Shown here in pieces: positions 22,210 to 49,014 of a DNA stretch of 64,000 nucleotides. The position numbers were made by a program, and so were the translations under genes. Below the pieces are notes generated by a model, which saw nothing but the letters and a program-made list of their open reading frames with translations, was not told where the DNA came from and did no database searches. The stretch comes from Candidatus Omnitrophica bacterium UBA6253 (GTDB lineage: Bacteria; Omnitrophota; Gorgyraeia; Gygaellales; Profunditerraquicolaceae). Each line of letters begins with the position of its first letter. Positions within the stretch are counted from its first letter, which is position 1. The stretch spans positions 116,547 through 180,546 of the forward strand of contig DJVP01000012.1 in NCBI GenBank assembly GCA_002441245.1. The letters are read 5' to 3'.

Positions 22210-22741
22210 AAATTTTCAATATTTTTCCCCATTTACCCTGTGATTTAAGGATCATCTCGGCGATCTCCCTGACAGCCCCGCGTCCGCCCATGCGCTTAGT
22301 TATATAAACTGCGGCCTTTTTAATTTCGCCGGAGGCATTTCCTACCGCTATCGGCAGGCCTATTTTGTGCATAAGCGACAGGTCCACCAGGTCGTCCGCC
22401 ACAAAACAAATTTCATCTGTGGAAACTTTGTATTTCTTTAGAATCATGCCCAAGACCTTAGTCTTAGGAAAAACATCGGCAAAAACTTTAGCCACCCGCA
22501 TATCTTTAGCGCGCGGGAGGATAGTCTTGGAACTTTTAGCGGTAATCAGAATAGTAGGGATCCCGGCTTTGTGTAAAACATAAACCCCTAACCCGTCATG
22601 CACATCAAAAAATTTAAGCTCGCCTCCCCGGGAATCATAGACTATCCTGCCGTCAGTTAATACCCCGTCAACATCCAGAAGGAGCAGTTTGATTTTTCGC
22701 AGGCGAGCATTTAAATCTTTTTTAGCTATTCCTCCAGGCAT
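22199..22741 (-). CDS. kdsC: 3-deoxy-D-manno-octulosonate 8-phosphate phosphatase
   Basis: HAD motif LLLLDVDGVLTDG and small size. Confidence 0.85.
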   Translation of the reverse strand: MPGGIAKKDLNARLRKIKLLLLDVDGVLTDGRIVYDSRGGELKFFDVHDGLGVYVLHKAGIPTILITAKSSKTILPRAKDMRVAKVFADVFPKTKVLGMILKKYKVSTDEICFVADDLVDLSLMHKIGLPIAVGNASGEIKKAAVYITKRMGGRGAVREIAEMILKSQGKWGKILKIYGV

Positions 22742-22743
22742 GA

Positions 22744-23712
22744 TTAAACTAATCCCGCTTTAAGCAGGTCCTGTACATCCAGCAAGCCCACCGGCCGCAT
22801 AAATTTATCCACAACAGGAACTTCATCTATTTTCTTGGCCTGCAATATACGCATTGCCTCTGCAGCCAGCATATCCTTATTTACTACTGTAGGATTCCTA
22901 GTCATTACCTCTTTGATCGCTCGCATCGCCAGATTTTTATCCGTTTCAAGATGGCGGCGCAGGTCTCCATCAGTAAAAATACCTTTTAGCTTACCCTGTT
23001 TATCTACAACTGTAGCTGAACCTGCCCTTGCCCGGGTAATCGCGCATAAGACCTGCGATACCTTCTTGTCTTCATCTACTACGGCATTGGACTGCGCGCG
23101 GCGCATAATATCCTCAACCCTCAAAAGCAGTCTCCTGCCTAAAGCTCCTCCCGGATGGAAAAAAGCAAAATCTTTTTCTTTAAAACCCTTTCTCTCCAAT
23201 AAACACACAGCCAGGGCATCCGCCATTGCAAGAGTCGCGGTGGTTGAAGCCGTAGGAGCCAGGCCCAATGGGCAAGCCTCTTTTTTAACTGAGACATCTA
23301 AAACCACATCGCTGTATTTAGCAAGCACGGATTTTAAGTTCCCAGTAAGCGATATAATCGGAGAACCTATTTTTTTAAGTATAGGCAGAAGCTGTTTCAT
23401 CTCCTCGGTAGAGCCGCTGTTAGAAAGAATAACTATGATATCATCCGCAGTTACTTTACCCAAATCACCGTGAATCGCCTCCGCGGTATGCAGAAATAAA
23501 CTAGGGGTACCGGTAGAAGCAAGGGTCGCGGAAAGTTTTTGCGCGATAATACCGGTCTTGCCCATACCACTGACTACAACCCTGCCCTTATTCTTAAGGA
23601 TTAATTCAACTGCCTTAACAAATCCTTTATCCAGCCGGCTTTTTAACAATTTTACGGCCGCGGCTTCGATATCTAAAACCTCTTTTGCCCGCTTAATAAC
23701 ATTTATCTTCAT
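22744..23712 (-). CDS. kdsD: Arabinose-5-phosphate isomerase (SIS + tandem CBS)
   Basis: SIS motifs (VVVSGMGKTG), C-terminal CBS pair. Confidence 0.85.
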   Translation of the reverse strand: MKINVIKRAKEVLDIEAAAVKLLKSRLDKGFVKAVELILKNKGRVVVSGMGKTGIIAQKLSATLASTGTPSLFLHTAEAIHGDLGKVTADDIIVILSNSGSTEEMKQLLPILKKIGSPIISLTGNLKSVLAKYSDVVLDVSVKKEACPLGLAPTASTTATLAMADALAVCLLERKGFKEKDFAFFHPGGALGRRLLLRVEDIMRRAQSNAVVDEDKKVSQVLCAITRARAGSATVVDKQGKLKGIFTDGDLRRHLETDKNLAMRAIKEVMTRNPTVVNKDMLAAEAMRILQAKKIDEVPVVDKFMRPVGLLDVQDLLKAGLV

Positions 23713-24521
23713 AGTGCACGCTCAATCTTTTTGACTTGTTTTAACAAAATCTCCAATTCTTTAAAATTAATCATATTTGCCCCATCGCAAGGTGCTATCT
23801 TAGGATCAATATGCACCTCTAAAAATAAACCATCGCAGCCAAAAGCTACGGCTGCCCTGGAAAGCCCGGAGACAAATTCACTTTGGCCTCCGGAACAAGC
23901 GCCTTTTCCTCCGGGGAGCTGGACACTGTGCGTGGCGTCATAAATTACCGGATAACCAAACCCGCGCATAATCGCAAGGGCCCGGTAATCCGTAACCAGG
24001 TTATTATAACCAAAACTTGCCCCTCTTTCCGTAAGTAAAATATTTTTATTCCCGGCGGATTCAACTTTCTTGATTATCGGCAAGATATCCCAAGGAGCAA
24101 GGAACTGCCCCTTCTTGATATTCACTGTTTTGCCGGTCTTTGCCGCAGCCAACAGAATATCTGTCTGACGGCAGAGAAAAGCCGGAATCTGAATAATATC
24201 CAAGACCTTGGCTGCCTCAGCCATATCTTTTGCGCAATGCACATCGCTAAGGACAGGAACCTTAAGCTGCTGTTTTACCTTCTTTAAAATAGCCAGCCCC
24301 TTGCTTAATCCCGGGCCGCGGTAAGAATCCACGGAAAGGCGGTTGGCTTTATCAAAGCTGGATTTGAATATAAAGGGCACTTTACATGATGAGGCGATGG
24401 ATTTAATCCGCCTGGCAGCTTCAAGACAAGAGCTTTCCGACTCAATAACACAGGGCCCGGCAATAAGCACGAGCGGAAATTTATCCCCAAATTTTATATT
24501 TCCTACATTAACCTGGCGCAT
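23709..24521 (-). CDS. kdsA: 2-dehydro-3-deoxyphosphooctonate aldolase (Kdo8P synthase)
   Basis: LVLIAGPCVIES N-terminus and DAHP/Kdo8P synthase fold. Confidence 0.9.
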   Translation of the reverse strand: MRQVNVGNIKFGDKFPLVLIAGPCVIESESSCLEAARRIKSIASSCKVPFIFKSSFDKANRLSVDSYRGPGLSKGLAILKKVKQQLKVPVLSDVHCAKDMAEAAKVLDIIQIPAFLCRQTDILLAAAKTGKTVNIKKGQFLAPWDILPIIKKVESAGNKNILLTERGASFGYNNLVTDYRALAIMRGFGYPVIYDATHSVQLPGGKGACSGGQSEFVSGLSRAAVAFGCDGLFLEVHIDPKIAPCDGANMINFKELEILLKQVKKIERAL

Positions 24522-25262
24522 TTAATTTATCCCCTTTTGTAATAAAACCTTGAGCCTCTCTAGATCTTCGGGAGTATCCACGCTTATAGTATCAAATTTA
24601 GTTTCGATCACTTTAATTTTAAACCCCTCGGCTAAAACGCGCAATTGTTCCAATTTCTCCGTCCTCTCAAGATTAGAAACAGGGAGGTTCTTATAAGTAA
24701 AAAGAAAATCTTTTGTATAACCATAAAGGCCGATATGCTTATAATAACTTGCCTCTTTGATTTCGGCGTTAGGCGCTAAGTAGGGAATAGGCGCGCGCGA
24801 AAAATACAAAGCTAGGTTATTCTTCCCCACCACTACCTTTACTACGTGCGGATCAGCAATCTGCTCGGGATCTTCAATCTTTTTCATGATTGTCGCCATA
24901 CTAAGAGAGCTATCTTCTAACAAAGCACGCGCGACGTTATCAATCATCATCGGATGAACTAAAGGTTCGTCACCCTGGATATTGATAACAATCTTCACAT
25001 CCAAAGGATTGACCACCTCGCTAATCCTATCAGTACCACAAGTATGCTCTTTAGAGGTCATTACTGTTTTGGCTCCAAATTCAGTTGCGACCTTCTGGAT
25101 TATTTTATCGTCACAAGCAATAACCAAATCATCGAGTATGCGGCTTGCTTTGGCCCTTTCCCAAACATGCTGCAACATAGGCTTGCCCATAATATCCGCC
25201 AGGACCTTGCCCTTAAACCTGGTAGATAAATACCTGGCAGGTATAACTCCAATTACATCCAT
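24522..25262 (-). CDS. kdsB: 3-deoxy-manno-octulosonate cytidylyltransferase
   Basis: GVIPARYLSTRFKGK N-terminus. Confidence 0.9.
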   Translation of the reverse strand: MDVIGVIPARYLSTRFKGKVLADIMGKPMLQHVWERAKASRILDDLVIACDDKIIQKVATEFGAKTVMTSKEHTCGTDRISEVVNPLDVKIVINIQGDEPLVHPMMIDNVARALLEDSSLSMATIMKKIEDPEQIADPHVVKVVVGKNNLALYFSRAPIPYLAPNAEIKEASYYKHIGLYGYTKDFLFTYKNLPVSNLERTEKLEQLRVLAEGFKIKVIETKFDTISVDTPEDLERLKVLLQKGIN

Positions 25263-26278
25263 TATTTAATCCTTCCTAAAAGTTCTCGGGAATTTGTTAC
25301 CGCTGTCCCCAGCTTGCCTACTACAATACCGGCGGCAAAATTAGCAATATACGCTGCTTCGAGTTTTGAAGCACCTGCGCAAAGAGCCAAGGTAAAACTG
25401 CTGATTACCGTGTCCCCTGCTCCGGATACATCAAAAACCTCCTGGGCTACGGTAGGAATGCGTTTATTCTTGCCTTTTTCAAAAAGCCACATTCCACCCT
25501 CGCCAAGTGTAATTAAAAGGCTCTCTAACTGCAAATACTCCAATATCTTCTCTCCTGCATTCTTAATGTCGTTATCCGTAAACAGAGTTTCCTTGTAAAT
25601 TTTAAACAAGTTTCCCCTATCATTCATTTTAAGATACCTGATGGCGTTCTGGGCTTCTTTTCGATTAGGAGTAATACAAGTGGCATGCTTATAGCAGTCG
25701 AAGTTATTCTCCTTAGGGTCAACAGTTACTATCTTTTTAAAATCTTTAGCGGTTTTAATAATATTCCTAGTCAATTCACGATCAAGCAGCCCTTTTCCAT
25801 AGTCCTCAATAACAATAGCGTCAAAATTCTTTATATTAGTGTCGAGAAATATTGTAAGCTTATCTTTTATAGACTTCGAAATATCATGTACATCTTCCCA
25901 ATCAACCCTTACCACCTGCTGGTGCCCTGCGATAATCCTTGTCTTAAGGGTTGTTTTCCTGCCCTTTTCAAAAAATACCCCCTTAGTATCAATGCCCAGT
26001 TTCTTGGCCTCGGACTGAAACATTTCTGTCGCCGGATCCTTGCTATCGCCCAATATCCCGCACAGACTTACCCTTGCGCCTAAGGCACTGATATTATTGG
26101 CAACATTAGCCGCGCCTCCTGGAACATAATTTCTTCTGTTTGCGTAAACCACGGGAACAGGAGCTTCAGGAGAAATCCTCTCGACATTACCCCAGATATA
26201 CTGGTCAAGAATCAGGTCGCCTACGACCAATACCCTTGCTTTATTAAGTTTCCCGACTACTTTTCTTAAGTTCTTCAT
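25262..26278 (-). CDS. hldE: D-beta-D-heptose 7-phosphate kinase (HldE/RfaE domain I only)
   Basis: PfkB ribokinase fold with VLVVGDLILDQY...PGGAANVA and C-terminal GAGDT motifs. No adenylyltransferase domain fused. Confidence 0.75.
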   Translation of the reverse strand: MKNLRKVVGKLNKARVLVVGDLILDQYIWGNVERISPEAPVPVVYANRRNYVPGGAANVANNISALGARVSLCGILGDSKDPATEMFQSEAKKLGIDTKGVFFEKGRKTTLKTRIIAGHQQVVRVDWEDVHDISKSIKDKLTIFLDTNIKNFDAIVIEDYGKGLLDRELTRNIIKTAKDFKKIVTVDPKENNFDCYKHATCITPNRKEAQNAIRYLKMNDRGNLFKIYKETLFTDNDIKNAGEKILEYLQLESLLITLGEGGMWLFEKGKNKRIPTVAQEVFDVSGAGDTVISSFTLALCAGASKLEAAYIANFAAGIVVGKLGTAVTNSRELLGRIK

Positions 26279-27207
26279 AGCTTTTCAATTACCGCCTGCG
26301 CTAAAAGCGGAAGCATTATTTCATGGTGGCCGATAATATAATACCCCTGCCCGCCTGAATTCGTCGGACGAATCACCACATTCTGCGCCGGACGGTACTG
26401 ATAAATCATATCAAAGTTAGCGGTAGTAAAATCCTTGACCTTATGCCCAAGGTTTCGCGCAAGATTAAGCGCCTTTAAAAATACCTCAGGCAAAAGCACA
26501 GCTGAGCCAAAATTTAAAACTACACCGCCCTGATTCAATAAGCAGATATTTTTAACAAGGGTATGGAAATCACGTAATGAGCCTTCGGCGGTCAACCCGG
26601 CATTGAACGAAGGATGCTGATGTATTATATCCGTACCGATGCCTACAAAAACGCATACCGGTACATTATATTTATGGGCATTATAAAGCAGGCTTAAATT
26701 TTTATTCGGTAATTTCTCATCGGAAATCATTTTACCCACCGCGTTTCCTAAACCTAAGCCCTCGCCCACTCCGTCCTTAACTGCCCGATTAATAAAATCC
26801 GCAGTTTCCTTGCCCATGCCGAAACTGCCATTTTTAAGGTTTTCGGCAACATCCTCGGAGGTCTTGCCCTGGAAAGCAATCTCAAAATCATGAATAATCC
26901 CGGCGCCATTAAGGCAAACACAACTAATTACTTTTTTCTTAATCAGTTCAATTAATATTGGATTAAGCCCGCATTTTATTACATGCGCGCCTGCCATAAA
27001 AATTACCGCTTTTTTCTTCCTGCTGGCCAAGGCTATATGCGAAGAAACCGCGCGTAAATCTTTAACCTTTAAAATATCCGGCAAAGAGCTCAGGAAGCTG
27101 TTAAAACTTTTAAGCTTAGCCGGAGCAAGCGCAAAATCCCCTTTACCTACCTTGCTAAAACGGGTTTTAATTGAGTATCTTTTTACTTTTTTCCAGTTAA
27201 TCGTCAT
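26275..27207 (-). CDS. Deoxyhypusine synthase-like protein (candidate homospermidine synthase-type)
   Basis: By-eye similarity to DHS blocks (NGAGIIHDFEI vs TAGGVEEDLIK, LLNQGGVV vs ILGGGVV, PLL near the C-terminus). Not confirmed. Confidence 0.4.
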   Translation of the reverse strand: MTINWKKVKRYSIKTRFSKVGKGDFALAPAKLKSFNSFLSSLPDILKVKDLRAVSSHIALASRKKKAVIFMAGAHVIKCGLNPILIELIKKKVISCVCLNGAGIIHDFEIAFQGKTSEDVAENLKNGSFGMGKETADFINRAVKDGVGEGLGLGNAVGKMISDEKLPNKNLSLLYNAHKYNVPVCVFVGIGTDIIHQHPSFNAGLTAEGSLRDFHTLVKNICLLNQGGVVLNFGSAVLLPEVFLKALNLARNLGHKVKDFTTANFDMIYQYRPAQNVVIRPTNSGGQGYYIIGHHEIMLPLLAQAVIEKL

Positions 27208-28869: not shown

Positions 28870-28870
28870 A

Positions 28871-32187: not shown

Positions 32188-32189
32188 CT

Positions 32190-32565: not shown

Positions 32566-34587
32566 CTAACCGCCTTTGAGTATTGATTCAGCTACAGAAA
32601 GCACATCCTCGATACTGATTGCCTTAAGACAGGCAAATTCTTTTTCACAATTATGCGCCAGGCATTGGATACAGCCTACGTCTTTATGCAGATATTTATC
32701 CCTTTTTCCTAAAGGGCCCCAGCGCCGCGGGCTAAGCCCGGGTTGATTGCGGCCAAAGATGGAAATTACGGGTATTCCTAAGCTTGAGGCGATATGCACC
32801 GGACCAGAATCATTAGAGATAAACAAAGAACACCTTTTAAGGATGCTGGCAAGATGACTCAGCGAAGTCTTGCCGGACAGATTTAACGCCTTATCTCCTA
32901 ATTTTTGAGCTACCATATTTGCCAATGGAATATCCCTGGCCCCGGCTACAATCAGAATCTTAAAATTATGCCGTTTGGCTAAAATTTCGGCAACCTGAGC
33001 GAACCTATTTATCGGCCAAATCTTTGAAGGACAACTTGCCCCAGGGTTAATCGCTAATAATTTATCTGCTTCTTCGATGCCATTGCCAGCAAACAAGTCA
33101 CTAACCCATTGCTCTGATTCCGGCTTTATGGGCATGAATAAATCCCGGGCATTGCCGCTTATACCTAAATCGCTAAGTAAATCCAGGTTATATTCCGCTT
33201 CATGCCTCAAGCCTTCTTGCTTTTTATGGGGTTTCTTGAGATTATTCAAGAAACCGAATTTACGGTTATACCCCAGGCGGCAAGGAATGCCAGCCAGGAA
33301 AATTATCAGATGCATACGATTGGTAGGATGCAGGATTATTGCCAAATCAAATCTTTTCTTTTTTAGCCTGCCGGCAAATCTTAGCGAACGAATCCAGCTT
33401 CTATGCTTAATCTCTTTATCATAAATTATAGTTTCATCCAGATATGGATTTGCCTCCACAATATCCCTGGCATAAGGAGCAACCATCATAGAAATATAAG
33501 CCTGTGGGTACTTTTGCCTTAAGGCCTTAATTACCGGAGTAGACAAAAGCACATCTCCTATACGGTCAGTACGCACGATTAAAATGCGCCGGTAAATCTT
33601 TTCTTTGGCATCAGGGGTATTTTCTTTATCTTTGCCTTTAAGTAAATAGTTTACCTGCTTAAATACATCATCAACCTTCAGACAAGACAAGCATTCAAGG
33701 CTAGCAAAACGGCAGGAGGCCTTTTCGCACGGCCGGCAAAATATATCTTTTTTAACAATTATTCTCTTCTGCGACCACGGCCCGTATTTATTTTCATCCG
33801 TAGGGCCGAATATTGAAACAACCGGAATATCCAGGTAACTAGCCAAATGCATTGCCGCGCTATCGTTGGTGATTAAAAGCCTGGCTTTTCTTAGTAAAGC
33901 TGCCAATTGATTAATTGAGGTTTTGGCGCAAAGATTAATGATTCTTTCCGGACAGGACTGGTGGACAAATGAACATACGGGTTCGTCGGTTTTATCCCCT
34001 ACCAAAACTACATCCCAGCCTTCTTTAATAAGTAGGCTGCATAGATGGCTGAAATTCTCTTTATCCCAACGCTTAATCTGACTCCTTGCTCCGGGAGCAA
34101 CTACTACTATTTTAGCGCTGTCTTTTATGTTTTGTCCTTTTAAAATATCCTCGATATATTTTACATCTTCGGCCGCGATAACCAGTGATTGCTGTTTCTT
34201 GCTCCTGAAAGGATACCCGGCAAAGCAGGCCCAAAATAAATGCCTGTCCTTCATATGTTTAAACTTTCCCGGTATAAAACGTAATGGGGAACTTCTTTTT
34301 TTAGCAGGCAGGAAAGCCCCGAACAAGCTATTGCGTAAGTCAACAATTATATCGAATTTCTCTTTGGACAGAAAAAGAAATAATTTTATCTTATCTATTA
34401 ACTTGGCATGTTTATTAAAAACAATTACATTTTCTATCGCCTGGTTGCTAATGAATATCTCTTTGGGCCTCTCAGGAACCAGGCAACTGATCTTGGCATT
34501 AGGGTATTCATTGCACAATGCGTCTAAAACCGGCAAGGTTAAAATGCAATCGCCTATATTGCTTAAAGTAATAAAAAGTATCTTCAT
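32566..34587 (-). CDS. Tandem-fused glycosyltransferase family 9 (two heptosyltransferase-like domains)
   Basis: Two repeats of the GT9 N-terminal signature (ILFITLSNIGDCILTLPVLDAL and RILIVRTDRIGDVLLSTPVIKAL), each with a C-terminal sugar-nucleotide domain. 673 aa. Confidence 0.75.
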   Translation of the reverse strand: MKILFITLSNIGDCILTLPVLDALCNEYPNAKISCLVPERPKEIFISNQAIENVIVFNKHAKLIDKIKLFLFLSKEKFDIIVDLRNSLFGAFLPAKKRSSPLRFIPGKFKHMKDRHLFWACFAGYPFRSKKQQSLVIAAEDVKYIEDILKGQNIKDSAKIVVVAPGARSQIKRWDKENFSHLCSLLIKEGWDVVLVGDKTDEPVCSFVHQSCPERIINLCAKTSINQLAALLRKARLLITNDSAAMHLASYLDIPVVSIFGPTDENKYGPWSQKRIIVKKDIFCRPCEKASCRFASLECLSCLKVDDVFKQVNYLLKGKDKENTPDAKEKIYRRILIVRTDRIGDVLLSTPVIKALRQKYPQAYISMMVAPYARDIVEANPYLDETIIYDKEIKHRSWIRSLRFAGRLKKKRFDLAIILHPTNRMHLIIFLAGIPCRLGYNRKFGFLNNLKKPHKKQEGLRHEAEYNLDLLSDLGISGNARDLFMPIKPESEQWVSDLFAGNGIEEADKLLAINPGASCPSKIWPINRFAQVAEILAKRHNFKILIVAGARDIPLANMVAQKLGDKALNLSGKTSLSHLASILKRCSLFISNDSGPVHIASSLGIPVISIFGRNQPGLSPRRWGPLGKRDKYLHKDVGCIQCLAHNCEKEFACLKAISIEDVLSVAESILKGG

Positions 34588-35618
34588 AATTTCCTAACTT
34601 TTCTGGCCTCTGTCAAGACATCATCAGGAGTAACCGCTTTCATACAACGGTTATCCTGGCAATTAACTCTATAGCAAGGAATCGCGCAACCAACATCTTT
34701 CTGCAAGATAACCACATTAGTATCCGGATAAGGGCCGGTTATTTCTCTGGCCGTCGGTCCAAAAATCCCTATTATCTTCTTAGCCCCAACGGCATTAGCT
34801 ATATGCATTGGCCCGGTATCCGCGGTAACAAAAAGGCTTGCCCGCTTAGCTAGGGCGGCCAAATGCTTTATATTAAAAACCCCGCAGCCAATCAAGGGCT
34901 TCTCTTTCATTTTTTCTTTTATCTGATTAGCCAGCGGCAGGTCAGATATACTACCGGTTATAATTACCCTTGCCTTTACTTCATCGATCAAACTATCAGC
35001 TAGCTTAGCCCAGTAATCCTTCGGCCAACGTTTAGGCATCCAATTTCCTCCGGGATTAAGCGCAACTAAAAAATCATCCTTACCCACGCCATTTCTTTTC
35101 AGGAAATCATATACATATTCCTCTTCTTCAGGAGTAAAAATAAAATCCAAGTACCTGTCTTCCACGCGTAAACCCGCTTTTTCAACAACATTCAGATAAA
35201 AATCTATACGGTGCAAAGAATCCCTTTTCGGCATAGAGATCTTTTGAGTCAGCAAGAAAGAACGTTTTTTAGTATTATGGCCTATCCTCTGCTGTATCCC
35301 GGCCAACCGACAAATTAACGCGCGGCTAAATGAACGATGCAACAGGAACGCAGTATCAAATTTCTTGCTTTTAAGCAGGCTGATAAAATTTAATTTTGCC
35401 AGCATACCCTTATGCCTGTCCTTTTCATCAAAAATAATTACTTCATCTAAATACGGATTTCCTTTTAATATCGGATAACACCGACTGGGGATTGCACAGG
35501 CAATATAGCTATCGGGATAATTCCTGCGTACATTCCTGATAGTGGCCGTAGAAAACAAAACATCCCCCAGCCAATTTACATTAAAGATAAGGATACGTTT
35601 TGGCTTAAGTTTACTCAT
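34584..35618 (-). CDS. Glycosyltransferase family 9 (ADP-heptose:LPS heptosyltransferase, WaaF/WaaC-like)
   Basis: RILIFNVNWLGDVLFSTATIRNV signature, 344 aa. Confidence 0.8.
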   Translation of the reverse strand: MSKLKPKRILIFNVNWLGDVLFSTATIRNVRRNYPDSYIACAIPSRCYPILKGNPYLDEVIIFDEKDRHKGMLAKLNFISLLKSKKFDTAFLLHRSFSRALICRLAGIQQRIGHNTKKRSFLLTQKISMPKRDSLHRIDFYLNVVEKAGLRVEDRYLDFIFTPEEEEYVYDFLKRNGVGKDDFLVALNPGGNWMPKRWPKDYWAKLADSLIDEVKARVIITGSISDLPLANQIKEKMKEKPLIGCGVFNIKHLAALAKRASLFVTADTGPMHIANAVGAKKIIGIFGPTAREITGPYPDTNVVILQKDVGCAIPCYRVNCQDNRCMKAVTPDDVLTEARKVRKL

Positions 35619-36734
35619 TTACGCTGGCTCTCCCGGCCGGATTCTTTTCTCTAAACATTCTTTATAAACCTTTTCTGTCGCATCAACCATTTTCTCTTTA
35701 GAAAAATTATCCATAATGAATTTACGGGCGCTAGTTGCCAAATTATCGCGCATTTGCTTATCAGTCAAAAGGCGCATAATCGCCCCCGCTAAAGATACCG
35801 GGTCAGCAGGCTCAACTAATAATCCGTTTTGCCCGTCTTTAATCAGGGTTTTTATCCCCCCCACTGCCGAACCTACAACTGCCAACCCCTGCGCCATTGC
35901 TTCCATAAGCGCTAAGCCTAAACCCTCCTGCAATGAAGGCATAACAAAGATATCCAGTGCCGCAAGCACATTTTTAGTTCCTTCAGCTTGCGGTAAGAAT
36001 AAAACACTATTTTTGATAGCTAGATCATCCGCTTCTTCAACCAGCACATCCTTCATTTTACCTTCGCCGACAACAACCAATTTCACTGAAGGAAAGTTCT
36101 TGATAATAATCTGCATGGCCTTAAAAAGATAAATATGCCCTTTCACGTCAGATAAACGGGCAACAATCCCCACTAAAGGGGCATCTTCTATGCCTAAAGA
36201 TTCCCTGAAACTTTGCCTGCCTGAAAAATCACCGAAACTTTGCAGATCTATACCGTTATTTATTACTTTAATTTTGTTTTCATCCAGATTAAAATCAAGA
36301 ATCAGATGTTCCTTTACCTGCTGGCTTATAGCAATAATAGCATTATCCCAACAAGGAAAAAACAAGCGGGATAGCTTTGGTTTAAAAAAACCATGGCAGG
36401 TAAATATATGCGGTTTACGGCAATAACGACTCAATAAACTCCCCAAAACCTGAGTAGTTCGGCTGTTTGAATGTATCAAATCAATATTAAGCCGCTTGAT
36501 TTCTTTTCTGAGCCTTAAAAAACTGATAATGATCTTCGGGCTGACCTCTTTTTTCGTGCATAAAGGAACCCGTATGTTCTTTATGCCTGCTGCCGTGAAC
36601 TTTCCTAAGAGTCCGCCTCCTCCGGAAGCCAGGTAAACACTATGGCCATTTTCTTTAAGTCCGGAGGCTAGAGTAAACAGATAGCTGGAAATTCCCCCTA
36701 CATTAAGATGGTTAGCTATAAACAATATATTCAT
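35619..36734 (-). CDS. Glycosyltransferase family 4 (GT-B, group 1)
   Basis: MNILFIANHLNVGGISSY N-terminus and C-terminal E-x7-E-like GT4 region. Confidence 0.8.
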   Translation of the reverse strand: MNILFIANHLNVGGISSYLFTLASGLKENGHSVYLASGGGGLLGKFTAAGIKNIRVPLCTKKEVSPKIIISFLRLRKEIKRLNIDLIHSNSRTTQVLGSLLSRYCRKPHIFTCHGFFKPKLSRLFFPCWDNAIIAISQQVKEHLILDFNLDENKIKVINNGIDLQSFGDFSGRQSFRESLGIEDAPLVGIVARLSDVKGHIYLFKAMQIIIKNFPSVKLVVVGEGKMKDVLVEEADDLAIKNSVLFLPQAEGTKNVLAALDIFVMPSLQEGLGLALMEAMAQGLAVVGSAVGGIKTLIKDGQNGLLVEPADPVSLAGAIMRLLTDKQMRDNLATSARKFIMDNFSKEKMVDATEKVYKECLEKRIRPGEPA

Positions 36735-38824
36735 TATAATAATTTATCTATTGCCGCAAGCACTTCCTCAGGAGTAATCTGCCTCATACAGTGCTTGGTT
36801 CGACATTTAGTTTTATAACAAGGCTGGCAATCCAGATTTTTATTAATCACAATGCAGTTCTTTCCTGGCGGAAGATGGCGGCGCGCATCAGTAGGCCCAA
36901 AGAGCGCGATAAAAGGAGTCCTTACCGCGGATGCGATATGCAAAGGCGAAGAATCTGCTGAAATAAACACATTGCATTTCTTGATCAGGGCAGCCAACTC
37001 ATTTACACTGGTTTTACCGCAGGCATTAATAATTTTGGTACCCTTAAGTGAATTTACGAGCATGTCAGCATAGACTAAATCCTGGGCAGTACCGGTAATC
37101 ACTACGCGTATATCGCGCAACCCCAAATCTTCACAAAGACGCATCAGGTATTGCTGCGGCCAAAGTTTGGTACTCCATCTCCTGGAAGCGCTAATATTGA
37201 TCCCCACTATTTTCTGAGCCTCGCTCAGCCATTGGGCGTTTAAAAGCTCATCCACGCGCTTTATATCTTCAGGAGACGGCCAAAGCTCAAGCGAATTATT
37301 CAAAAGGTCAATACCGAGCATTTTTAATATGCGAAACTGGTGCGTTACCGGGTCGATAAGCGGTTTTCCATCTTTAATGCGGTGCTGAAGCAAAAAAGAA
37401 AGCTTTTTGTTATCATAACCGTAGCAATTAACGCAGCCGCTCAGGTAAGAAAGTATATGGCTGGACCGGCTGTTCTGCAGGTCTATAACAATATCAAAAT
37501 TCTTTTTCCTTAAGACGCCTCCTATGCCCAATAACCCCTTTAGCCCCTTATCATTATTTTTCAAATCACACACCAATAGCTCATCTATATAAGGGCTTCT
37601 TAGCAATACATCTTTTGATTCCTCTCCGGTCAAAAAGCTTATCTTATAATTTGCTTGGGAAAATTTCTCCCAAACCGCCCTTAATGCAGCCGTGGAAAGG
37701 ATTATATCCCCTAGAGAGCTGAGCTTAATTATCAGAATCTTAAAATTACTCAAGGCATCACGGTAAACATCCAAGGTATTCTTAACCATCAACTCCACCG
37801 TATATTTTTCTTTAATCTTAACGTAGGCATTCTCTGCCAAATTCTGTGCTAATTGCGTATTTTCATAAATACGCAGTATAGCATCGGCCATGCTTTTATG
37901 ATCTGCTGGAGGAACTAATAGACCGTTTTTGCCATCTTCAATGATATCAATTACCCCGCCTACCTTAGTAGCTACCACCGGTACGCCGGAGGCTTGGGCC
38001 TCAACCACTACCCGGCCAAATGCCTCATGTGTTGTCGTAGCCAAAACCACCAGGTCCAGATGCGCCAGTATCCCAGGGATATCACGCTGTGTTCCTAAGA
38101 ATTCTGTGCAATGCCATAGACCAAGCCGTCGTACTAACACCTGTACTTCCTCCTTATACGCCTCCTTTGATGCCGGGGCATCCCCCACTATCCATATTTT
38201 TAACCGTGGTACAGTCCTTGAGATACGCGCCATAGCCTTAATAAAATGCAGGTGGCCTTTTAGAGGAGTGATCCTGCCGATAATCCCTACGTTAAACTCC
38301 TCTTTTCTCTTTGACTTAGGGTCAAGGTATTTAAACCTTTCCATATCCACGCTGCGCGGAACAAGCCTGATACGCTCATGAGGCACTGCAAAGTCTTCAA
38401 TCATATGCCGGGCAATCACGTTGCTTAAAACAATCACTCTCTTAGCCCAACCCATTACTAAACTAAAAAGATGCTTCTTATAGTAGCCATGACAAGTAGT
38501 TATAAATACGGCCTTGGTCCTACGGCAGGCAAAATAAGCAATCCATGCCGGCACGCGCGAACGGGCATGAACGATATCAATCTCCTCCTGTTTGATTATC
38601 CCTACTAGAATAGGGATTAATTTATATATAGAAAAAATTGATTTTTTATGTACTGCTAATGTGTAATGTTTGGCGCCGCATGCTTCAAGCTCTCCGACCA
38701 GGGCTCCGCCGGCAGAAACCACTACTACTTTATGCCCCAGGCGCACCAGATACTTGGACAAATCCAAGGTACCGGTCTCAACCCCGCCTACATTAAGTTC
38801 AGGCAATATTTGCAGTATCTTCAT
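36734..38824 (-). CDS. Fusion protein: GT4 glycosyltransferase (N-terminal) + GT9 heptosyltransferase (C-terminal)
   Basis: N-terminus ILQILPELNVGGVE (GT4), then from about residue 360 FKILIIKLSSLGDIILSTAALRAV (GT9). 696 aa. Confidence 0.75.
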   Translation of the reverse strand: MKILQILPELNVGGVETGTLDLSKYLVRLGHKVVVVSAGGALVGELEACGAKHYTLAVHKKSIFSIYKLIPILVGIIKQEEIDIVHARSRVPAWIAYFACRRTKAVFITTCHGYYKKHLFSLVMGWAKRVIVLSNVIARHMIEDFAVPHERIRLVPRSVDMERFKYLDPKSKRKEEFNVGIIGRITPLKGHLHFIKAMARISRTVPRLKIWIVGDAPASKEAYKEEVQVLVRRLGLWHCTEFLGTQRDIPGILAHLDLVVLATTTHEAFGRVVVEAQASGVPVVATKVGGVIDIIEDGKNGLLVPPADHKSMADAILRIYENTQLAQNLAENAYVKIKEKYTVELMVKNTLDVYRDALSNFKILIIKLSSLGDIILSTAALRAVWEKFSQANYKISFLTGEESKDVLLRSPYIDELLVCDLKNNDKGLKGLLGIGGVLRKKNFDIVIDLQNSRSSHILSYLSGCVNCYGYDNKKLSFLLQHRIKDGKPLIDPVTHQFRILKMLGIDLLNNSLELWPSPEDIKRVDELLNAQWLSEAQKIVGINISASRRWSTKLWPQQYLMRLCEDLGLRDIRVVITGTAQDLVYADMLVNSLKGTKIINACGKTSVNELAALIKKCNVFISADSSPLHIASAVRTPFIALFGPTDARRHLPPGKNCIVINKNLDCQPCYKTKCRTKHCMRQITPEEVLAAIDKLL

Positions 38825-40770
38825 AGTATTTTATCTAACCCTGCGCTTACCCGTAAGTTATCTTCAGGAAAACTTACCCTGGGATGATTCTGTAATATTT
38901 CTCTAATGAAGCCGGAGATTTCTTTAATTTGCTTTAAATATATATATCTTTTATCCTGATAATTTTTTAGAAAGCGTTGATGCTTCTTGCTAAGGCCGGC
39001 GGCCTTAAATACCACAACATATCTTTCTGCCATAACCGCCTCAGAGATCATCGATATACTCTCCGGCGAACTTATAATTATACTGCTTAAGCCTAATATG
39101 CCGCCAACTGCATCAGGATGGTTGTTTTCATTGGCAATAATTAAAAGCTTACAGCGCAAATAAGCCTCAAATTCTTTTTTAAGCACCTGCTCCACTTCCG
39201 GCGGCGTACGGCGGGAGGTAGAAAGAAGAATATCCGCGTTCAACTCTTCGGCAGATTGTTTAATTTGACCAATCAATCCTGTTATCGCCTGACGGCTAAT
39301 AGCAAACCCTTTACTATCGCCTCCAATTAATATGCCAATACAAGGATTAAGCAAAGGGCCTTTTAAGAGGCCGGACTTCTGCAATCTCCCTGATTTTTCT
39401 TTTAAATAATCCCCGTCAATTAAATTAAGCGCCCCCTCGGTCATTACCACATTTTTCTTATTTTGTGGCCTGTCATGCCGGGGGATAATCGCCAGATCAA
39501 ACTTTTTCAGGCTTAAGACAGCCGGCCGCATTACAATAACTGACTTGGCCTGGTTTGCTTTAGCCAATATATAATTTACAGCGCTCAATTTATCTCCCGC
39601 AGAAATAATAATATCGGGCTTAAGGTTGATTAAACCCTGCCAACTTTCACTGGTTAAGGCATAATGCAAATAACACAGGCAGCGATGGCATTGATACCTG
39701 CCGTTAAAAACAGCCATCCAGTTAAATATAACCCTGAACAGGCAGCTACGGAATTTCACCTCACAGATAGATAATGTAGATTTTATTCCCCGCCCTGATA
39801 ATTGCCGATTGACCAATTTAGCTACGCTTTCAGACTGATGGAGGTGGCCTGCCTTTCCATCGGAAAGGATCAATACCTCTTTCTCTTTACCGTATTTCCA
39901 GATTTTATAAGTCCAGAGATACTCATAGGGGTATTGCTGGATATACTTCTCATAAATATCAGCCAACCTCTGCAGGTTGTCATGCAGGTCATTTTGTGCG
40001 TCACCGCTTTTGGTTGCCACATAAACCTGGTCCAGAATAACTTTAGTATGAGGACCTTTTACGCGCGTATAAAAAACAGGGATTATGGAACAGCCGTATT
40101 TCAAAGCCAGCTTCACCGCTCCGGTAGACATAGAGGCGGATTTACCAAAAAACCTTACGATCTCCCCCTTTTTGCCGCCCTGATCAGTAGTCATCCCGAT
40201 TGACTGGTTATTTTTAAGGACATCAATCAACTCCCGCAATCCCCCTTGCTTATGGATAAGCTTTGCCCCTTGTTTAAGCCTATAGGTATTAAGCAGGTCA
40301 TTTAACCGCGGGAATCCCTGATCTCGCACAAATAATATAAAAGGGAACCCGAGGTTTGCGCAGATGATATTGGAAAGTTCCCAGTTACCTTCATGTGCGA
40401 TAAGAAAAATTACCCCTTTGCCTCTTTTAAAAGCCTCGCCAATATAATGCCTGTTTTCAATATGGATATACTTTTCAAGATACCTCTTATTTATACGCGG
40501 GATAAAAGAAATCTCTATAAGGTTCTGGCCGAATGCCTGATAAACCTTGCGGGTTATCTTTGCGGCTAACCGAAAGTCTTTATTTATTGTCACGGCCTTC
40601 TTGATATTCGCGTAAGCGACCGCGCGATGCCGGGAATCAAAAAAATAGATAACGTCCCCCAGCCTCCTGCCCAAAAACAGGCTTGCGTTCAAAGGCAGCA
40701 AGAAAGTAAACAGGCTGGCGGCCTTAAAGAGAATACAGCTTAAGTAATCGGCGATCAAATTCTGCTTCAT
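38821..40770 (-). CDS. Fusion protein: LpxL/HtrB-type lipid A late acyltransferase (N-terminal) + ELM1-like GT-B domain (C-terminal)
   Basis: N-terminal half resembles lauroyl/myristoyl acyltransferases (about 290 aa). C-terminal half begins LILSDGKAGHLHQSESVAKL, like the ELM1-family N-terminus. Confidence 0.6.
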   Translation of the reverse strand: MKQNLIADYLSCILFKAASLFTFLLPLNASLFLGRRLGDVIYFFDSRHRAVAYANIKKAVTINKDFRLAAKITRKVYQAFGQNLIEISFIPRINKRYLEKYIHIENRHYIGEAFKRGKGVIFLIAHEGNWELSNIICANLGFPFILFVRDQGFPRLNDLLNTYRLKQGAKLIHKQGGLRELIDVLKNNQSIGMTTDQGGKKGEIVRFFGKSASMSTGAVKLALKYGCSIIPVFYTRVKGPHTKVILDQVYVATKSGDAQNDLHDNLQRLADIYEKYIQQYPYEYLWTYKIWKYGKEKEVLILSDGKAGHLHQSESVAKLVNRQLSGRGIKSTLSICEVKFRSCLFRVIFNWMAVFNGRYQCHRCLCYLHYALTSESWQGLINLKPDIIISAGDKLSAVNYILAKANQAKSVIVMRPAVLSLKKFDLAIIPRHDRPQNKKNVVMTEGALNLIDGDYLKEKSGRLQKSGLLKGPLLNPCIGILIGGDSKGFAISRQAITGLIGQIKQSAEELNADILLSTSRRTPPEVEQVLKKEFEAYLRCKLLIIANENNHPDAVGGILGLSSIIISSPESISMISEAVMAERYVVVFKAAGLSKKHQRFLKNYQDKRYIYLKQIKEISGFIREILQNHPRVSFPEDNLRVSAGLDKIL

Positions 40771-41785
40771 TCTTAGTTATGACCAGTTTAATATTCAAAG
40801 AGAATATGCCCGGATAGGTAAATTTAAGCCTGGAAATCTTCACGGCATCTTTTTCGGTTGTGATAATCGTATCTAAATTCCTGTCTCTGGCGCATTTAAT
40901 AATACCATCTAAGTCTGCCTGCGCATAATCGTGATGATCAATAAATCTCAAGGCCTCTGCGATATTAATTCCTAAAGAAGAAACCGTGTTCTCGAAGGCC
41001 CGCGGGTTGCCTATAGCTGAAAAAACTACCGCGGATTTTCCGTTAAAACTATCTGGGCTTAAAATTTCATCCGGAGCATGCAGATTACCAAAACCCTCAG
41101 GCCTATGCCTTGACTCTACAATAAGAGCCCGGGAATTTAACTGTCTTAATCTTGCCGTCAGGCCAGCGGTATCCTGGCCAGGATAAACTTGAGTCAAAAC
41201 AAATATATCTGCCCTGCTCAACGCAATCAACGGCTCACGTAAAAAACCCGCCGGAAGCAAACGAAGATTACCAAAAGGATTGCAGGCATCGATAGTTACA
41301 ATCTCCAGATCTTTAAATATACGCCACTGCTGCATACCATCATCAAGAATCAGGATATTTGCAGCATGATCCTTGATTGCCCTGGCTGCCCCTTTTAACC
41401 TGTCTTTATCGACAATAACAGGAGTTTGCGGCAGCTTTTTTTGTAACATAGCCGGTTCATCTCCCATACCTTGCTCCCCGGAAAGTTTTATATCTCTTTT
41501 ATAGCCCCGGGTAAGCACCGCTATCTTATTGCCTTTCTGGCTTAGTTTAACAACCAAATATTCTACAAGGCTGGTCTTGCCTGTGCCGCCTAGAGTAATG
41601 TTTCCTACGCTGATTAACGTACAATTAACCCGTGCCGGCCGAAACCTATGGAAACCCGCCGCAATAACCACAGCCAATCCATAAACCAAAGACAACATAA
41701 AAAGCAGGCCTCTTAAACACGCTGCCAACGGGCCTTTTATCTTGCAGGTAACTAAGTTATAAAGGTAGTCCTTTGGTAAAAGCAT
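40724..41785 (-). CDS. lpxK: Tetraacyldisaccharide 4'-kinase
   Basis: LISVGNITLGGTGKTSLVEYLV P-loop and TRGYKR motif. Confidence 0.85.
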   Translation of the reverse strand: MLLPKDYLYNLVTCKIKGPLAACLRGLLFMLSLVYGLAVVIAAGFHRFRPARVNCTLISVGNITLGGTGKTSLVEYLVVKLSQKGNKIAVLTRGYKRDIKLSGEQGMGDEPAMLQKKLPQTPVIVDKDRLKGAARAIKDHAANILILDDGMQQWRIFKDLEIVTIDACNPFGNLRLLPAGFLREPLIALSRADIFVLTQVYPGQDTAGLTARLRQLNSRALIVESRHRPEGFGNLHAPDEILSPDSFNGKSAVVFSAIGNPRAFENTVSSLGINIAEALRFIDHHDYAQADLDGIIKCARDRNLDTIITTEKDAVKISRLKFTYPGIFSLNIKLVITKNEAEFDRRLLKLYSL

Positions 41786-47742: not shown

Positions 47743-49014
47743 TCAATCAATTAACAACTGTTTGATAGCCTCAATATTCTTTTTGGTCGCACCCCTGTTA
47801 CTGATAATCAATTCATAAGCGTGTTCAACCAATTGCTCAGCCGACAGATCACTAGATAATATTTCTTTTGTTTTACTGGCCAACTCTCGTGAATCACACA
47901 CCATAACAGCAGCCTTATTCTTCAAAAACAATTTGCTAATATCCCGGAAGTTAAACATATGAGGACCAAAGATCACCGGCTTTTTTTGACTTGCCGGTTC
48001 AAGGATATTGTGGCCGCCGGTCTTAACCAGGCTACCTCCGACAAAAACAATATCCGCAGCAGCATAATAGTTAAGCAGCTCCCCCATAACATCAAGAATA
48101 AACACAGGATTATTAATATGGACAGGAGATGCCCCGGATATGCTTGAAATAAAAACCGGCATAAAATCCTGCTGCGAAATTAATCTTCCGACATCCCCGC
48201 AGCGTTCCGGATGCCGCGGGACAAGCAGTAATTTTAACTTTGGGAAAGTAAATAAAAGTTCTTTGTAGGCCTCAATAATTATCTCTTCTTCTCCGGGGTG
48301 CGTACTGCCGCAAACCCATAACTTATCATCTAAATCCAGCCAAAGCTTATTGCGGATAAAAAAAGGATCAAATCCTGCTATTGCCTCTAAATTAATGTCA
48401 AACTTGACATTTCCTGTAACCTGGACGTTCCCTTTATCTACTCCCAAATCTGCTAATCGCAAGGCATCAGTTTCCGTTTGCACGCAGAACTTACCAACCT
48501 TCCTTAAAATCGGCCGGATAAGCAATCTTATCGCGCGGTAGCCGGAATAAGAATTATCGGATATCCTGCCATTAACCGTAATTATCGGAATCTTCTGTTT
48601 ATACAGACAATTAATTAAGTTCGGCCAAATTTCTGTTTCAGCAATAATAAACAGACAGGGGTTAATCTTCTTTATTACCTTCTTAACAATAAAACTCAAA
48701 TCCAAGGGAAGATAAGTCAGGAGGTCGCCATCATTGATTAGCCCCCGGGCGATTTTATTGCCGGTTGCGGTTACAGTGGAAATAACTAATTTCTTATGCG
48801 GATAGGCCTTTCTTAATTCACCGACCAACCCCTTTATGGAAACAGCCTCTCCTACGCTTACCGCATGTATCCAAATCGGCTTATCCAGGTTTAAATTATC
48901 CGGCAAAAACCCGAAACGCCTGAAGAACCCATAATGGAACTTACCCTTAAGTAAATATACCGGCAGATAAATTAATACGAAAATTAAAATTATTAAATCA
49001 TAAAGCAGGAACAT
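47743..49014 (-). CDS. waaA: 3-deoxy-D-manno-octulosonic acid (Kdo) transferase
   Basis: IWIHAVSVGEAVSIKGLV N-terminal motif and GT30 fold. Confidence 0.85.
   Translation of the reverse strand: MFLLYDLIILIFVLIYLPVYLLKGKFHYGFFRRFGFLPDNLNLDKPIWIHAVSVGEAVSIKGLVGELRKAYPHKKLVISTVTATGNKIARGLINDGDLLTYLPLDLSFIVKKVIKKINPCLFIIAETEIWPNLINCLYKQKIPIITVNGRISDNSYSGYRAIRLLIRPILRKVGKFCVQTETDALRLADLGVDKGNVQVTGNVKFDINLEAIAGFDPFFIRNKLWLDLDDKLWVCGSTHPGEEEIIIEAYKELLFTFPKLKLLLVPRHPERCGDVGRLISQQDFMPVFISSISGASPVHINNPVFILDVMGELLNYYAAADIVFVGGSLVKTGGHNILEPASQKKPVIFGPHMFNFRDISKLFLKNKAAVMVCDSRELASKTKEILSSDLSAEQLVEHAYELIISNRGATKKNIEAIKQLLID

Follow-up and report, generated by a model that had tools for sequence, protein, structure and literature searches.

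The LPS inner-core heptosyltransferases of E. coli, WaaC (HepI), WaaF (HepII) and WaaQ (HepIII), and the Veillonella GT9 enzyme of PDB entry 3TOV are GT-B-fold members of the PF01075 family that consist of a single domain. Enzymes of one glycan pathway can also be joined: WbdA holds two GT4 modules in one protein, KpsC two beta-Kdo transferase modules and HldE a kinase and an adenylyltransferase. In these proteins, as in the A. pleuropneumoniae capsule multienzyme (PDB 8QOY) that was among our structural matches, each module keeps its own active site, and the same would hold for the Omnitrophota fusions described here. The known examples serve O-antigen, capsule or precursor synthesis, unlike the inner-core and lipid A fusions of this locus, and our literature search yielded neither a report of fused inner-core GT9 modules nor one of an acyltransferase-glycosyltransferase fusion. 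The LpxL/LpxM acyltransferases (A. baumannii LpxM, PDB 5KN7/5KNK) and mycobacterial PatA lack the C-terminal GT-B domain of about 355 residues that is present here, and A. baumannii GtrOC1, encoded in the LOS outer-core locus, is a stand-alone PF06258 protein. The A. baumannii members of this ELM1/GtrOC1 family are predicted, and only predicted, to be glycosyltransferases (PMC4172580), and our literature search found no member with demonstrated activity.

We analysed a window of 64,000 nucleotides from the MAG of Candidatus Omnitrophica bacterium UBA6253 (contig DJVP01000012.1) and describe the domain identities, catalytic motifs, gene context and conservation of one block of genes, together with the polymorphism between its split and fused states in relatives. 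The block (32566-41785, minus strand) comprises, in transcription order, lpxK (40724-41785, 353 aa), an LpxL+ELM1 fusion (38821-40770, 649 aa), a GT4+GT9 fusion (36734-38824, 696 aa), a stand-alone GT4 gene (GT4b; 35619-36734, 371 aa), a stand-alone GT9 gene (GT9b; 34584-35618, 344 aa) and a GT9+GT9 fusion (32566-34587, 673 aa), all on the minus strand and all encoding proteins with a pI of 9.3-9.7. These are exactly the six consecutive minus-strand genes that a preliminary description of this DNA had reported, and the overlaps it had listed are all present in the sequence: 47 nt between lpxK and LpxL+ELM1 (40724-40770), a 4-nt ATGA at 38821-38824 and again at 34584-34587, and a single nucleotide (TAATG) at 36734. 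At 35618/35619 the TAA and ATG abut with no overlap. The block was said to end at lpxK; read on the coding strand, it begins with lpxK. Its claimed content of four GT9 domains, two GT4 domains, a late acyltransferase and lpxK agrees with the Pfam assignments, which score far above the curated cut-offs and add one ELM1 domain to the tally; the second halves of the fusions are GT9 domains in the 673-aa and 696-aa proteins and an ELM1 domain in the 649-aa protein.

The GT9 family model PF01075 (cut-off 22 bits) matches the 673-aa protein with 246 bits in two stretches, GT9b with 115 bits and the GT9 part of the GT4+GT9 fusion (GT9c) with 126 bits. NCBIfam heptosyltransferase models span all four modules end to end; in the 673-aa protein full-length models match residues 2-322 and 334-670, and in the 696-aa protein residues 362-696. 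The N-terminal module of the GT9+GT9 fusion (GT9a_N; residues 1-318, 33634..34587, minus strand) differs most from the other three and lacks about 20 residues of the acceptor subdomain through a deletion; across 46 sequences, its D13, K172, W174, D242 and H247 do not vary. It is followed by a Lys/Glu-rich linker of about 15 residues (319-333; 33589..33633, minus strand), and then by the C-terminal module (GT9a_C; 32566..33588, minus strand, encoding residues 334-673 and including the stop codon), whose D345, D593 and H598 are invariant across 46 homologues. GT9a_C is the most WaaF-like of the four modules, with PDB matches to 3TOV at 9e-44 and to WaaF (1PSW) at 2e-27. In AF2 models of two of the fusion proteins (pLDDT 85.7 and 84.9; pTM 0.68 and 0.79), each half of GT9+GT9 aligns structurally with 3TOV, WaaF or WaaC, the TM-scores normalised to the target being 0.79-0.87 (Foldseek: 3TOV 2e-19, TMt 0.87; WaaF 1.8e-16, 0.83; WaaC 1.4e-11, 0.79).

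The preliminary description had called these modules WaaC/WaaF-type, two types between which the equivalog models do not discriminate here. The best model for all four is HepII/WaaF (TIGR02195, cut-off 134.6 bits), with 164.9 bits for GT9a_C, 151.7 for GT9b (above the cut-off), 138.9, and 133.0 for GT9c; all four paralogues lie at or near the cut-off, so this model does not tell them apart. The HepI/WaaC model (TIGR02193, cut-off 185.3) was reached by no module (92.6, 78.0, 77.7 and 67.3 bits), and unlike in E. coli no module can be assigned as a WaaC orthologue. As HepI-level scores are missing and HepII scores are marginal, donor and acceptor specificities are guesses. The E. coli WaaC signature D261(T/S)(G/A)xxH266, together with D13 and K192 (PMC3559599), has its equivalents in GD, KxW and D(S/T)xxxH motifs, which all four modules share without exception and which line up with the WaaC residues; GT9c carries all three, its DSSPLH corresponding to the S/A variant described for WahD (PMC3559599). 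The GT9 modules are predicted to be heptosyltransferases, most likely with ADP-heptose as donor; for heptose transfer to the core the support is the gene context, namely hldA and the adjacent kds, lpx and lpt genes.

In the GT4+GT9 fusion, the GT4a domain occupies residues 1-358 (37751..38824, minus strand), with Glycos_transf_1 (130 bits) and Glyco_transf_4 (96 bits) matching at about residues 12-334 and an EX7E motif that reads EAFGRVVVE. GT9c follows at residues 359-696 (36737..37750, minus strand), with PF01075 located at residues 438-678. GT4b shares 32% identity with GT4a and has EGLGLALME as its EX7E motif; both GT4 proteins exceed the cut-offs of the two Pfam models. In contrast to the single-domain enzymes of E. 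coli and 3TOV, two of the four GT9 modules thus share one polypeptide and a third is joined to a GT4 domain.

LpxK scores 257 bits with its Pfam model and 195.1 bits with the equivalog TIGR00682 (cut-off 91.95), and contains the P-loop GGTGKTS and a hydrophobic N-terminal segment (residues 19-48) as anchor. Elsewhere lpxK is also annotated with 324 aa, as expected if translation starts at 41698. In the 649-aa protein, residues 1-295 (39886..40770, minus strand) form the LpxL-type late (secondary) acyltransferase domain, which likewise has a hydrophobic N-terminus, a membrane anchor, and an LpxM-like fold; Lip_A_acyltrans (PF03279) matches residues 16-292 with 145 bits, above its cut-off, and the HX4D/E dyad is present as an HX4E motif invariant among aligned homologues. 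It reached no NCBIfam acyltransferase equivalog, the best being NF006270 with 137.7 bits against a cut-off of 248. With almost no linker, the ELM1/GtrOC1-family domain follows (residues 296-649; 38824..39885, minus strand), matched by Mito_fiss_Elm1 (PF06258) at residues 307-610 with 154 bits, above the cut-off. It has a GT-B fold whose nearest solved neighbours are lipid-glycosylating enzymes, and in family and setting it resembles GtrOC1, a predicted GT-B enzyme in an LPS/LOS core locus. An identity as LpxB was considered and rejected, since neither the sequence nor the closest folds resemble LpxB.

The same window carries the rest of a conserved LPS cluster at 21313..27207 (minus strand), comprising a GSU2086-family gene, hldA, kdsB, kdsA, kdsD, kdsC and an LptC+LptA-like fusion, after which comes lptB (20610-21332). 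A Kdo transferase gene, waaA, lies at 47743..49014 (minus strand; Glycos_transf_N 195 bits, NF004388 381 bits). The heptose-7-phosphate kinase HldA reaches its equivalog cut-off (362 versus 345 bits), and hldA is the only ADP-heptose pathway gene that we found within the window. An insert of about 5 kb at 27583-32465 parts the GT9 genes from the hldA/kds block, which is contiguous with them in relatives (loci L005-L007). This gene content places the cluster in a lipid A and LPS-core setting, as had been proposed from the six genes; for Omnitrophota, our literature search returned no biochemical or LPS-structural description.

The gene order from lpxK to the GT9 genes is kept in 80 species-level genomes, and in three MAGs (59-70% identity) it extends over lpxK, LpxL+ELM1, GT4+GT9, GT4, GT9, GT9(+)GT9, the GSU2086 gene, hldA, kdsBADC, lptC-A and lptB. 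LpxL+ELM1 is fused, next to LpxK, in 57 of the 64 informative Omnitrophota loci, and in another Omnitrophota lineage ELM1 is joined to LpxK and not to LpxL (about 32 clusters), whereas GtrOC1 stands alone. We counted at least 593 species-genome loci with GT4+GT9 proteins, which are full length in every one of the best 80; among the best 149 representatives, such proteins fall into at least 56 clusters (50% identity), and GT4-GT4, GT4-GT4-GT4, GT9-GT9 and GT4-GT9-GT9 architectures also exist. The few apparent splits of LpxL+ELM1 and GT4+GT9 are frameshifts inside domains, and these two are predicted to be old fusions, near-universal in the sampled phylum and essentially without linker. Of 55 loci, on the other hand, about 33 encode the last two GT9 modules in separate adjacent genes and about 15 in a single fused one, which points to a young fusion that is not obligatory, and the fused loci group in one or two clades in a neighbour-joining tree (one protein, without support values). 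In split orthologues a stop codon is followed by a restart 'M..ILIVRTDRIGD', mostly overlapping and out of frame, and this junction coincides with the linker, which is variable in the alignment and has a pLDDT below 50 at residues 319-328. GT9+GT9 would be a clade-specific fusion of two adjacent genes, with a disordered linker. The fused layout is typical of Omnitrophota, so that the covalent assembly called unusual in the preliminary description is so against textbook proteobacteria only and is the norm among the relatives surveyed; it is a modest variant of known enzymes that is apparently undescribed.

We consider it probable that the block is a late lipid A/core-oligosaccharide operon of overlapping or abutting neighbours, in which several pairs have become fused and each module is its own catalytic unit. 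All modules would work on a growing lipid A-Kdo acceptor at the cytoplasmic side of the inner membrane: LpxK would phosphorylate the 4' position, the product of waaA, which lies 6 kb upstream, would add Kdo to give the Kdo-lipid A acceptor, the membrane-anchored LpxL domain would add a secondary acyl chain, and the tethered ELM1 GT-B domain would add a sugar near lipid A, while the core would be built by two GT4 hexosyltransferase modules together with four GT9 modules, for which ADP-heptose is the most likely donor. Fusion would set a 1:1 stoichiometry and hold otherwise peripheral GT-B enzymes at the membrane beside their pathway neighbours. The donor sugars, the order of action and a kinetic benefit of fusion are what we infer here, and a neutral fusion of overlapping genes fits the same data as a beneficial one.

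That the fusions are frameshift or assembly artefacts, or that one half of each is a dead pseudo-enzyme, is exceedingly improbable. We found no evidence for an artefact, and the only hint of a pseudo-enzyme is the divergence and deletion of GT9a_N, against which stand catalytic residues that do not vary in either half of the two fusions with aligned relatives. At least 10 contigs of independent assemblies, NCBI, JGI and two Logan assemblies among their sources, encode the identical 673-aa protein. The GT9-GT9 and LpxL-ELM1 proteins each have more than 120 homologue clusters (58-100% identity, with Omnitrophota names); nearly all of these cover 97-100% of the query in the alignment, while a few shorter ones look truncated. 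Across the fusions, full-length homologues number in the hundreds. The fusions reported earlier are thus upheld, and both halves are intact enzyme modules with conserved catalytic motifs. It is also improbable, if less so, that the GT9 modules are not LPS heptosyltransferases and transfer another sugar, or act on some other acceptor, for example a protein, in the manner of TibC/Aah, or another glycolipid. The marginal HepII and insufficient HepI scores would agree with this, as would a CxxC..C..C motif that all four modules carry without counterpart in the aligned E. coli WaaC, WaaF and 3TOV, the presence of iron-containing TibC among the structural matches, and a weak hit to the TibC model. 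Against it speak structural matches that rank WaaF, WaaC and 3TOV above TibC, the D(T/S)(G/A/S)xxH signature with the K192 equivalent in every module and a locus that holds lpxK, lpxL, hldA, kdsABCD, lptC/A/B and waaA.

The preliminary description had gone further and suggested an obligate, ordered inner-core pathway; on this reading, a covalent assembly line would channel a lipid-linked intermediate between active sites and fix the order of inner-core sugars. The fused partners are indeed neighbours in a conserved gene order, LpxL+ELM1 and GT4+GT9 are kept essentially linkerless across lineages only 30-40% identical, and the pTM values of the AF2 models hint at some defined inter-domain packing. 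Yet most of the species sampled encode GT9a_N and GT9a_C in two genes, so covalent linkage is not required, their linker is disordered and variable, and other lineages pair GT4b+GT9b (L027 and L087), GT9b+GT9a_N (L017) or LpxK+ELM1, so that no particular pairing is required either; we regard such an assembly line as unlikely. More plausible, though still short of an even chance, is that the fusions are by-products of packed, overlapping genes in small genomes without functional consequence. With overlaps of 4, 1 and 0 nt, a small indel at ATGA suffices to merge ORFs; different neighbours within the same operon have fused independently several times, fused and split states coexist, and the same genomes hold LptC+LptA, WaaA+LpxK and CCA-type nucleotidyltransferase+LpxK fusions nearby. 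Neutrality alone sits less well with two fusions that are kept across the whole sampled phylum without reversion, and with an ELM1 domain whose partner, nearly always the membrane-anchored LpxL or LpxK, looks non-random.

Being tethered in this way to a membrane-anchored enzyme of lipid A synthesis, ELM1 would stand out as a glycosyltransferase acting directly at the lipid A-Kdo region, with the fusions recording consecutive steps, a conjecture that we offer tentatively and hold to be doubtful. If it is true, the repeated neighbour fusions (GT4+GT9, GT4b+GT9b, GT9b+GT9a_N and GT9a_N+GT9a_C) would record consecutively acting enzymes, the ELM1 step would be one so far uncharacterised, and gene architecture alone could reveal in which order an uncultured phylum assembles its core.

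The locus at 32566-41785 is an operon for late lipid A and core biosynthesis in an Omnitrophota bacterium. Our ORF list reproduced all six minus-strand ORFs where the preliminary description had placed them, and Pfam and NCBIfam models assigned their domains (plus signs denote domains fused in one protein): in transcription order, LpxK (40724-41785, 353 aa), an LpxL-type acyltransferase+PF06258 'ELM1' (38821-40770, 649 aa), GT4+GT9 (36734-38824, 696 aa), GT4 (35619-36734, 371 aa), GT9 (34584-35618, 344 aa) and GT9+GT9 (32566-34587, 673 aa). The block had been described as ending at lpxK, which is instead the first gene to be transcribed. The junction overlaps that had been claimed are present in the sequence, all on the minus strand: lpxK shares 47 nt with the gene for the 649-aa protein (40724-40770), ATGA overlaps occur at 38821-38824 and 34584-34587, a one-base TAATG overlap lies at 36734, and stop and start codons abut at 35618/35619. 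A 90-aa ORF of the GDT1 family (41795-42067) sits directly upstream and ends 9 nt ahead of lpxK, so the transcription unit may extend beyond the block. Scanned for promoters and terminators, the sequence yielded sites no more often than shuffled sequence did; the top promoter-like site, at 32531-32503 on the minus strand with 11 of 12 matches, occupies the 100-nt gap past the last GT9 gene, ahead of an ArsR-family gene. The start of lpxK is ambiguous: the longest ORF encodes 353 aa and is so called in two relatives as well, and elsewhere the identical sequence is annotated as 324 aa, with a start at 41698, within the hydrophobic N-terminal segment.

The double-domain proteins could have been frameshift artefacts that join separate genes, and several observations show that they are genuine. 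The exact 673-aa protein recurs on no fewer than 10 contigs (the ones listed are from NCBI MAG GCA_028712745.1, one JGI metagenome and two Logan assemblies), and its 696- and 649-aa neighbours accompany it wherever the contig extends far enough upstream. Searches for GT9-GT9 homologues gave more than 120 clusters (90% identity clustering) that are 58-100% identical, nearly all 655-705 aa long and covering 97-100% of the query, the three shorter ones residing on short contigs and being apparently truncated; those clusters that bear names are 'Candidatus Omnitrophica/Omnitrophota'. LpxL-ELM1 homologues follow the same pattern (63-100% identity, mostly full coverage). In an alignment of 46 GT9-GT9 sequences D13, K172, W174, D242 and H247 of the N-terminal half and D345, D593 and H598 of the C-terminal half are invariant, and the linker columns are variable. 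Similarly, 48 aligned LpxL-ELM1 sequences preserve the HX4E acyltransferase dyad (H126, E131) and the ELM1 motifs D304, G308-H309, G483-G484, T518-R521 and S568..E577 without exception, while the GT4-GT9 protein shows the expected motifs in both modules when read from the window sequence itself.

The four GT9 modules are 25-36% identical among themselves and the two GT4 modules 32%, from which we conclude that they are old paralogues rather than recent duplicates. Each of the four GT9 modules can be aligned over its full length to E. coli WaaC and WaaF and to the Veillonella GT9 structure 3TOV, and all retain residues corresponding to WaaC D13, K192 and the D261(T/S)(G/A)xxH266 signature, residues described for heptosyltransferases (PMC3559599). 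Modelled with AF2, the 673-aa protein (pLDDT 85.7) has two halves that each superpose on 3TOV, WaaF or WaaC at TM-scores (target-normalised) of 0.79-0.87, and none of its structural matches is a solved structure spanning both GT9 halves. The NCBIfam equivalog models do not tell the four modules apart as WaaC, WaaF or WaaQ orthologues and do not support the preliminary label WaaC/WaaF-type: the HepII model scores best for every module (133-165 bits, cut-off 134.6), and all stay well below the 185-bit cut-off of the HepI model. Since every module retains its own catalytic residues, each fused polypeptide most likely carries out two separate transfers. The predicted core would contain at most about four heptoses, two hexoses and one additional sugar.

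All four GT9 modules (window 32566-38824) also carry a CxxC..C..C motif near the C-terminus that is invariant in 46 homologues, comprising C284/C287/C292/C299 and C639/C642/C647/C653 in the 673-aa protein and matching positions in the 344-aa GT9 and in the 696-aa protein's GT9 half. The motif is absent from the aligned sequences of E. coli WaaC, WaaF and 3TOV and lies where the AF2 model has low confidence; it may represent a metal site such as that of the iron-containing heptosyltransferase TibC, a structural match.

We then asked how widespread such fusions are. A search of the GT4-GT9 protein against 1.84 billion representatives returned 2533 at E<=1e-30, and local HMMs assigned architectures to the best 149 of these. 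GT4-GT9 accounted for 56 of the best 149, followed by single GT4 (32), GT4-GT4 (21), single GT9 (17), GT4-GT4-GT4 (13) and GT9-GT9 (7), with one representative each for GT4-GT4-GT9, GT4-GT9-GT9 (1081 aa; protein P0278, NCBI source) and GT9-GT4 (a 337-aa fragment). On the basis of these counts, and because GT4-GT9 representatives reach down to approximately 26% identity, fused GT4/GT9 modules are common in metagenomes, and the notion that such covalent fusions are unusual holds only by comparison with textbook proteobacteria. Two cluster look-ups of 20 representatives, aimed at the distribution beyond Omnitrophota, provided a single taxonomic name, 'Chlamydiota bacterium' (43% identity).

For GTDB species genomes we scanned with a narrower GT4-GT9 alignment, a 20-sequence set of distant fusions being too divergent for search patterns. 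The scan gave at least 593 loci, the best 80 of which all encode a full-length GT4-GT9 protein and are all Omnitrophota-type, nearly all being so titled (a few have placeholder titles, for instance 'uncultured Planctomycetia', and another is 'Ca. Elulimicrobium'). In 57 of the 64 loci with enough upstream sequence a separate LpxK gene neighbours an LpxL+ELM1 gene, and in 2 of the 64 LpxK is fused to ELM1 without LpxL; the remaining 5 include frameshifts inside domains (L033 and L055) and broken HMM matches (L070). We rejected L033 and L055 as cases of split LpxL and ELM1 genes because their frameshifts lie within domains and do not reflect real domain splits. The last two GT9 modules, GT9a_N and GT9a_C (N- and C-terminal modules of the 673-aa protein), are encoded by separate genes in approximately 33 of the 55 loci with enough downstream sequence and fused in 15, as counted with a C-terminal-core criterion because the HMM match to the divergent GT9a_N breaks into two pieces. 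When modules were assigned to the best window paralogue, one invariant order emerged: the fused GT4 and GT9 halves of the 696-aa protein, the 371-aa GT4 (GT4b), the 344-aa GT9 (GT9b), GT9a_N and GT9a_C. In split genomes, CP070837.1 among them, a stop codon closes the upstream gene and 'M..ILIVRTDRIGD' restarts the downstream one, the two genes usually overlapping in different frames. When GT4-GT9 proteins were placed in a neighbour-joining tree, the fused loci fell within two clades, that of the window and another small one, and sporadic fusions of other neighbours occur as GT4b+GT9b (L027, L087) and GT9b+GT9a_N (L017).

Because the genes overlap or abut, neighbours have merged repeatedly. LpxL+ELM1 and GT4+GT9 are ancient fusions, with junctions of 0-5 residues and presence across the sampled phylum, and GT9a_N+GT9a_C is a young, clade-specific fusion whose linker of approximately 15 residues is Lys/Glu-rich with pLDDT <50. 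The coexistence of split and fused orthologues shows that covalent linkage is not obligatory, contrary to the obligate pathway previously read into the fusions. A putative benefit of fusion could be stoichiometry, co-localisation or tethering. LpxK and LpxL have hydrophobic N-termini and the six block proteins are basic (pI 9.3-9.7), features that fit the predicted action at the inner face of the inner membrane.

The 649-aa LpxL+ELM1 protein was modelled with a pLDDT of 84.9 and a pTM of 0.79, and no close solved relative of the ELM1 family was found by sequence. We considered ELM1 as a substitute for LpxB, as this would turn LpxK+ELM1 into a fusion of consecutive steps, and rejected it: similarity to LpxB is absent in sequence and fold, and LpxB is not among the top structural matches listed. 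NCBI names the family 'ELM1/GtrOC1'; GtrOC1 of A. baumannii is a glycosyltransferase of the LOS outer-core locus by prediction only (PMC4172580; PMC11975115).

The LpxK+ELM1 proteins of another Omnitrophota lineage are approximately 700-740 aa long, with no LpxL domain at the locus (L078, 7848-10001, on the complete chromosome CP070837.1; L034, 7822-9993; proteins P0390-P0422), and a homologue search with the CP070837.1 protein gave approximately 32 clusters of that architecture (39-100% identity). The matches also included fusions of LpxK to WaaA, the Kdo transferase (650-830 aa, several named Omnitrophota), and to a CCA/poly(A)-polymerase-type nucleotidyltransferase (approximately 880-895 aa, in Omnitrophota); these further LpxK fusion proteins are P0429, P0430, P0433, P0439, P0441, P0450 and P0477, and P0431 and P0434.

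Nearly all genes of the window, a segment of an Omnitrophota chromosome, lie on the minus strand; all annotated ORFs of at least 150 aa except one are so oriented, GC skew is uniformly negative, and tRNA and Rfam scans found no RNA genes in the 64 kb. It also holds the LPS genes hldA (TIGR02198, 362 bits versus a cut-off of 345), kdsB, kdsA, kdsD, kdsC, an LptC+LptA-like fusion, lptB and waaA. Three other Omnitrophota MAGs keep a nearly contiguous gene order, with a GT9-GT9 protein 59-70% identical: lpxK, LpxL+ELM1, GT4+GT9, GT4, GT9 and GT9+GT9, then a GSU2086-family gene, hldA, kdsB, kdsA, kdsD, kdsC, lptC-A and lptB. In the window this cluster is split by an approximately 5-kb minus-strand block (27583-32465) encoding an ArsR-family regulator, an 843-aa MMPL/RND-type transporter, a LolA-like (TP_0789-like) protein and a 428-aa protein that matches no family. 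Two of the three MAGs have no insert at this position and the third (L007) has a different, small transposase-like one after the GT9+GT9 gene. The gene for the uncharacterised GSU2086-family protein (26275-27207, minus strand; 310 aa) overlaps the hldA start by 4 nt. Its position directly upstream of hldA in all 4 genomes examined suggests that it contributes to the synthesis of heptose or LPS precursors. The 298-aa ORF at 21313-22209 (minus strand) joins an LptC domain to an LptA/OstA-like domain, a fusion that adjoins lptB in the three other MAGs as well. Further minus-strand genes encode a trigger factor of 292 aa versus a 410-position model (19697-20575), whose relatives have Trigger_N and Trigger_C domains and no PPIase domain, and two-domain proteins combining an ADP-ribose-binding macro domain with Nudix (58482-59411) and STAS with PilZ (42849-43571).

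We found no prior description of Omnitrophota LPS genes, Mito_fiss_Elm1 fusions or natural GT9 fusions in the literature. Public annotation names each fusion by just one of its domains ("lipopolysaccharide heptosyltransferase II", "ELM1/GtrOC1 family putative glycosyltransferase", "tetraacyldisaccharide 4'-kinase"), masking the two-enzyme nature of these proteins in hundreds of Omnitrophota genomes. All domains come from known families, so new chemistry is not implied. The finding alone opens no long-standing question, and multi-domain glycosyltransferases are common. It does provide a natural experiment, in that one gene pair occurs both fused and split within a single phylum, which makes it possible to test whether joining peripheral membrane glycosyltransferases covalently alters their kinetics or localisation. 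The near-constant tethering of ELM1/GtrOC1 is the most useful lead: in sampled genomes the domain is nearly always joined to a membrane-anchored lipid A enzyme, LpxL or LpxK. Such attachment would keep the ELM1 domain at the membrane, next to lipid A, a concrete hypothesis for this uncharacterised family, which is also present in Acinetobacter baumannii LOS loci.
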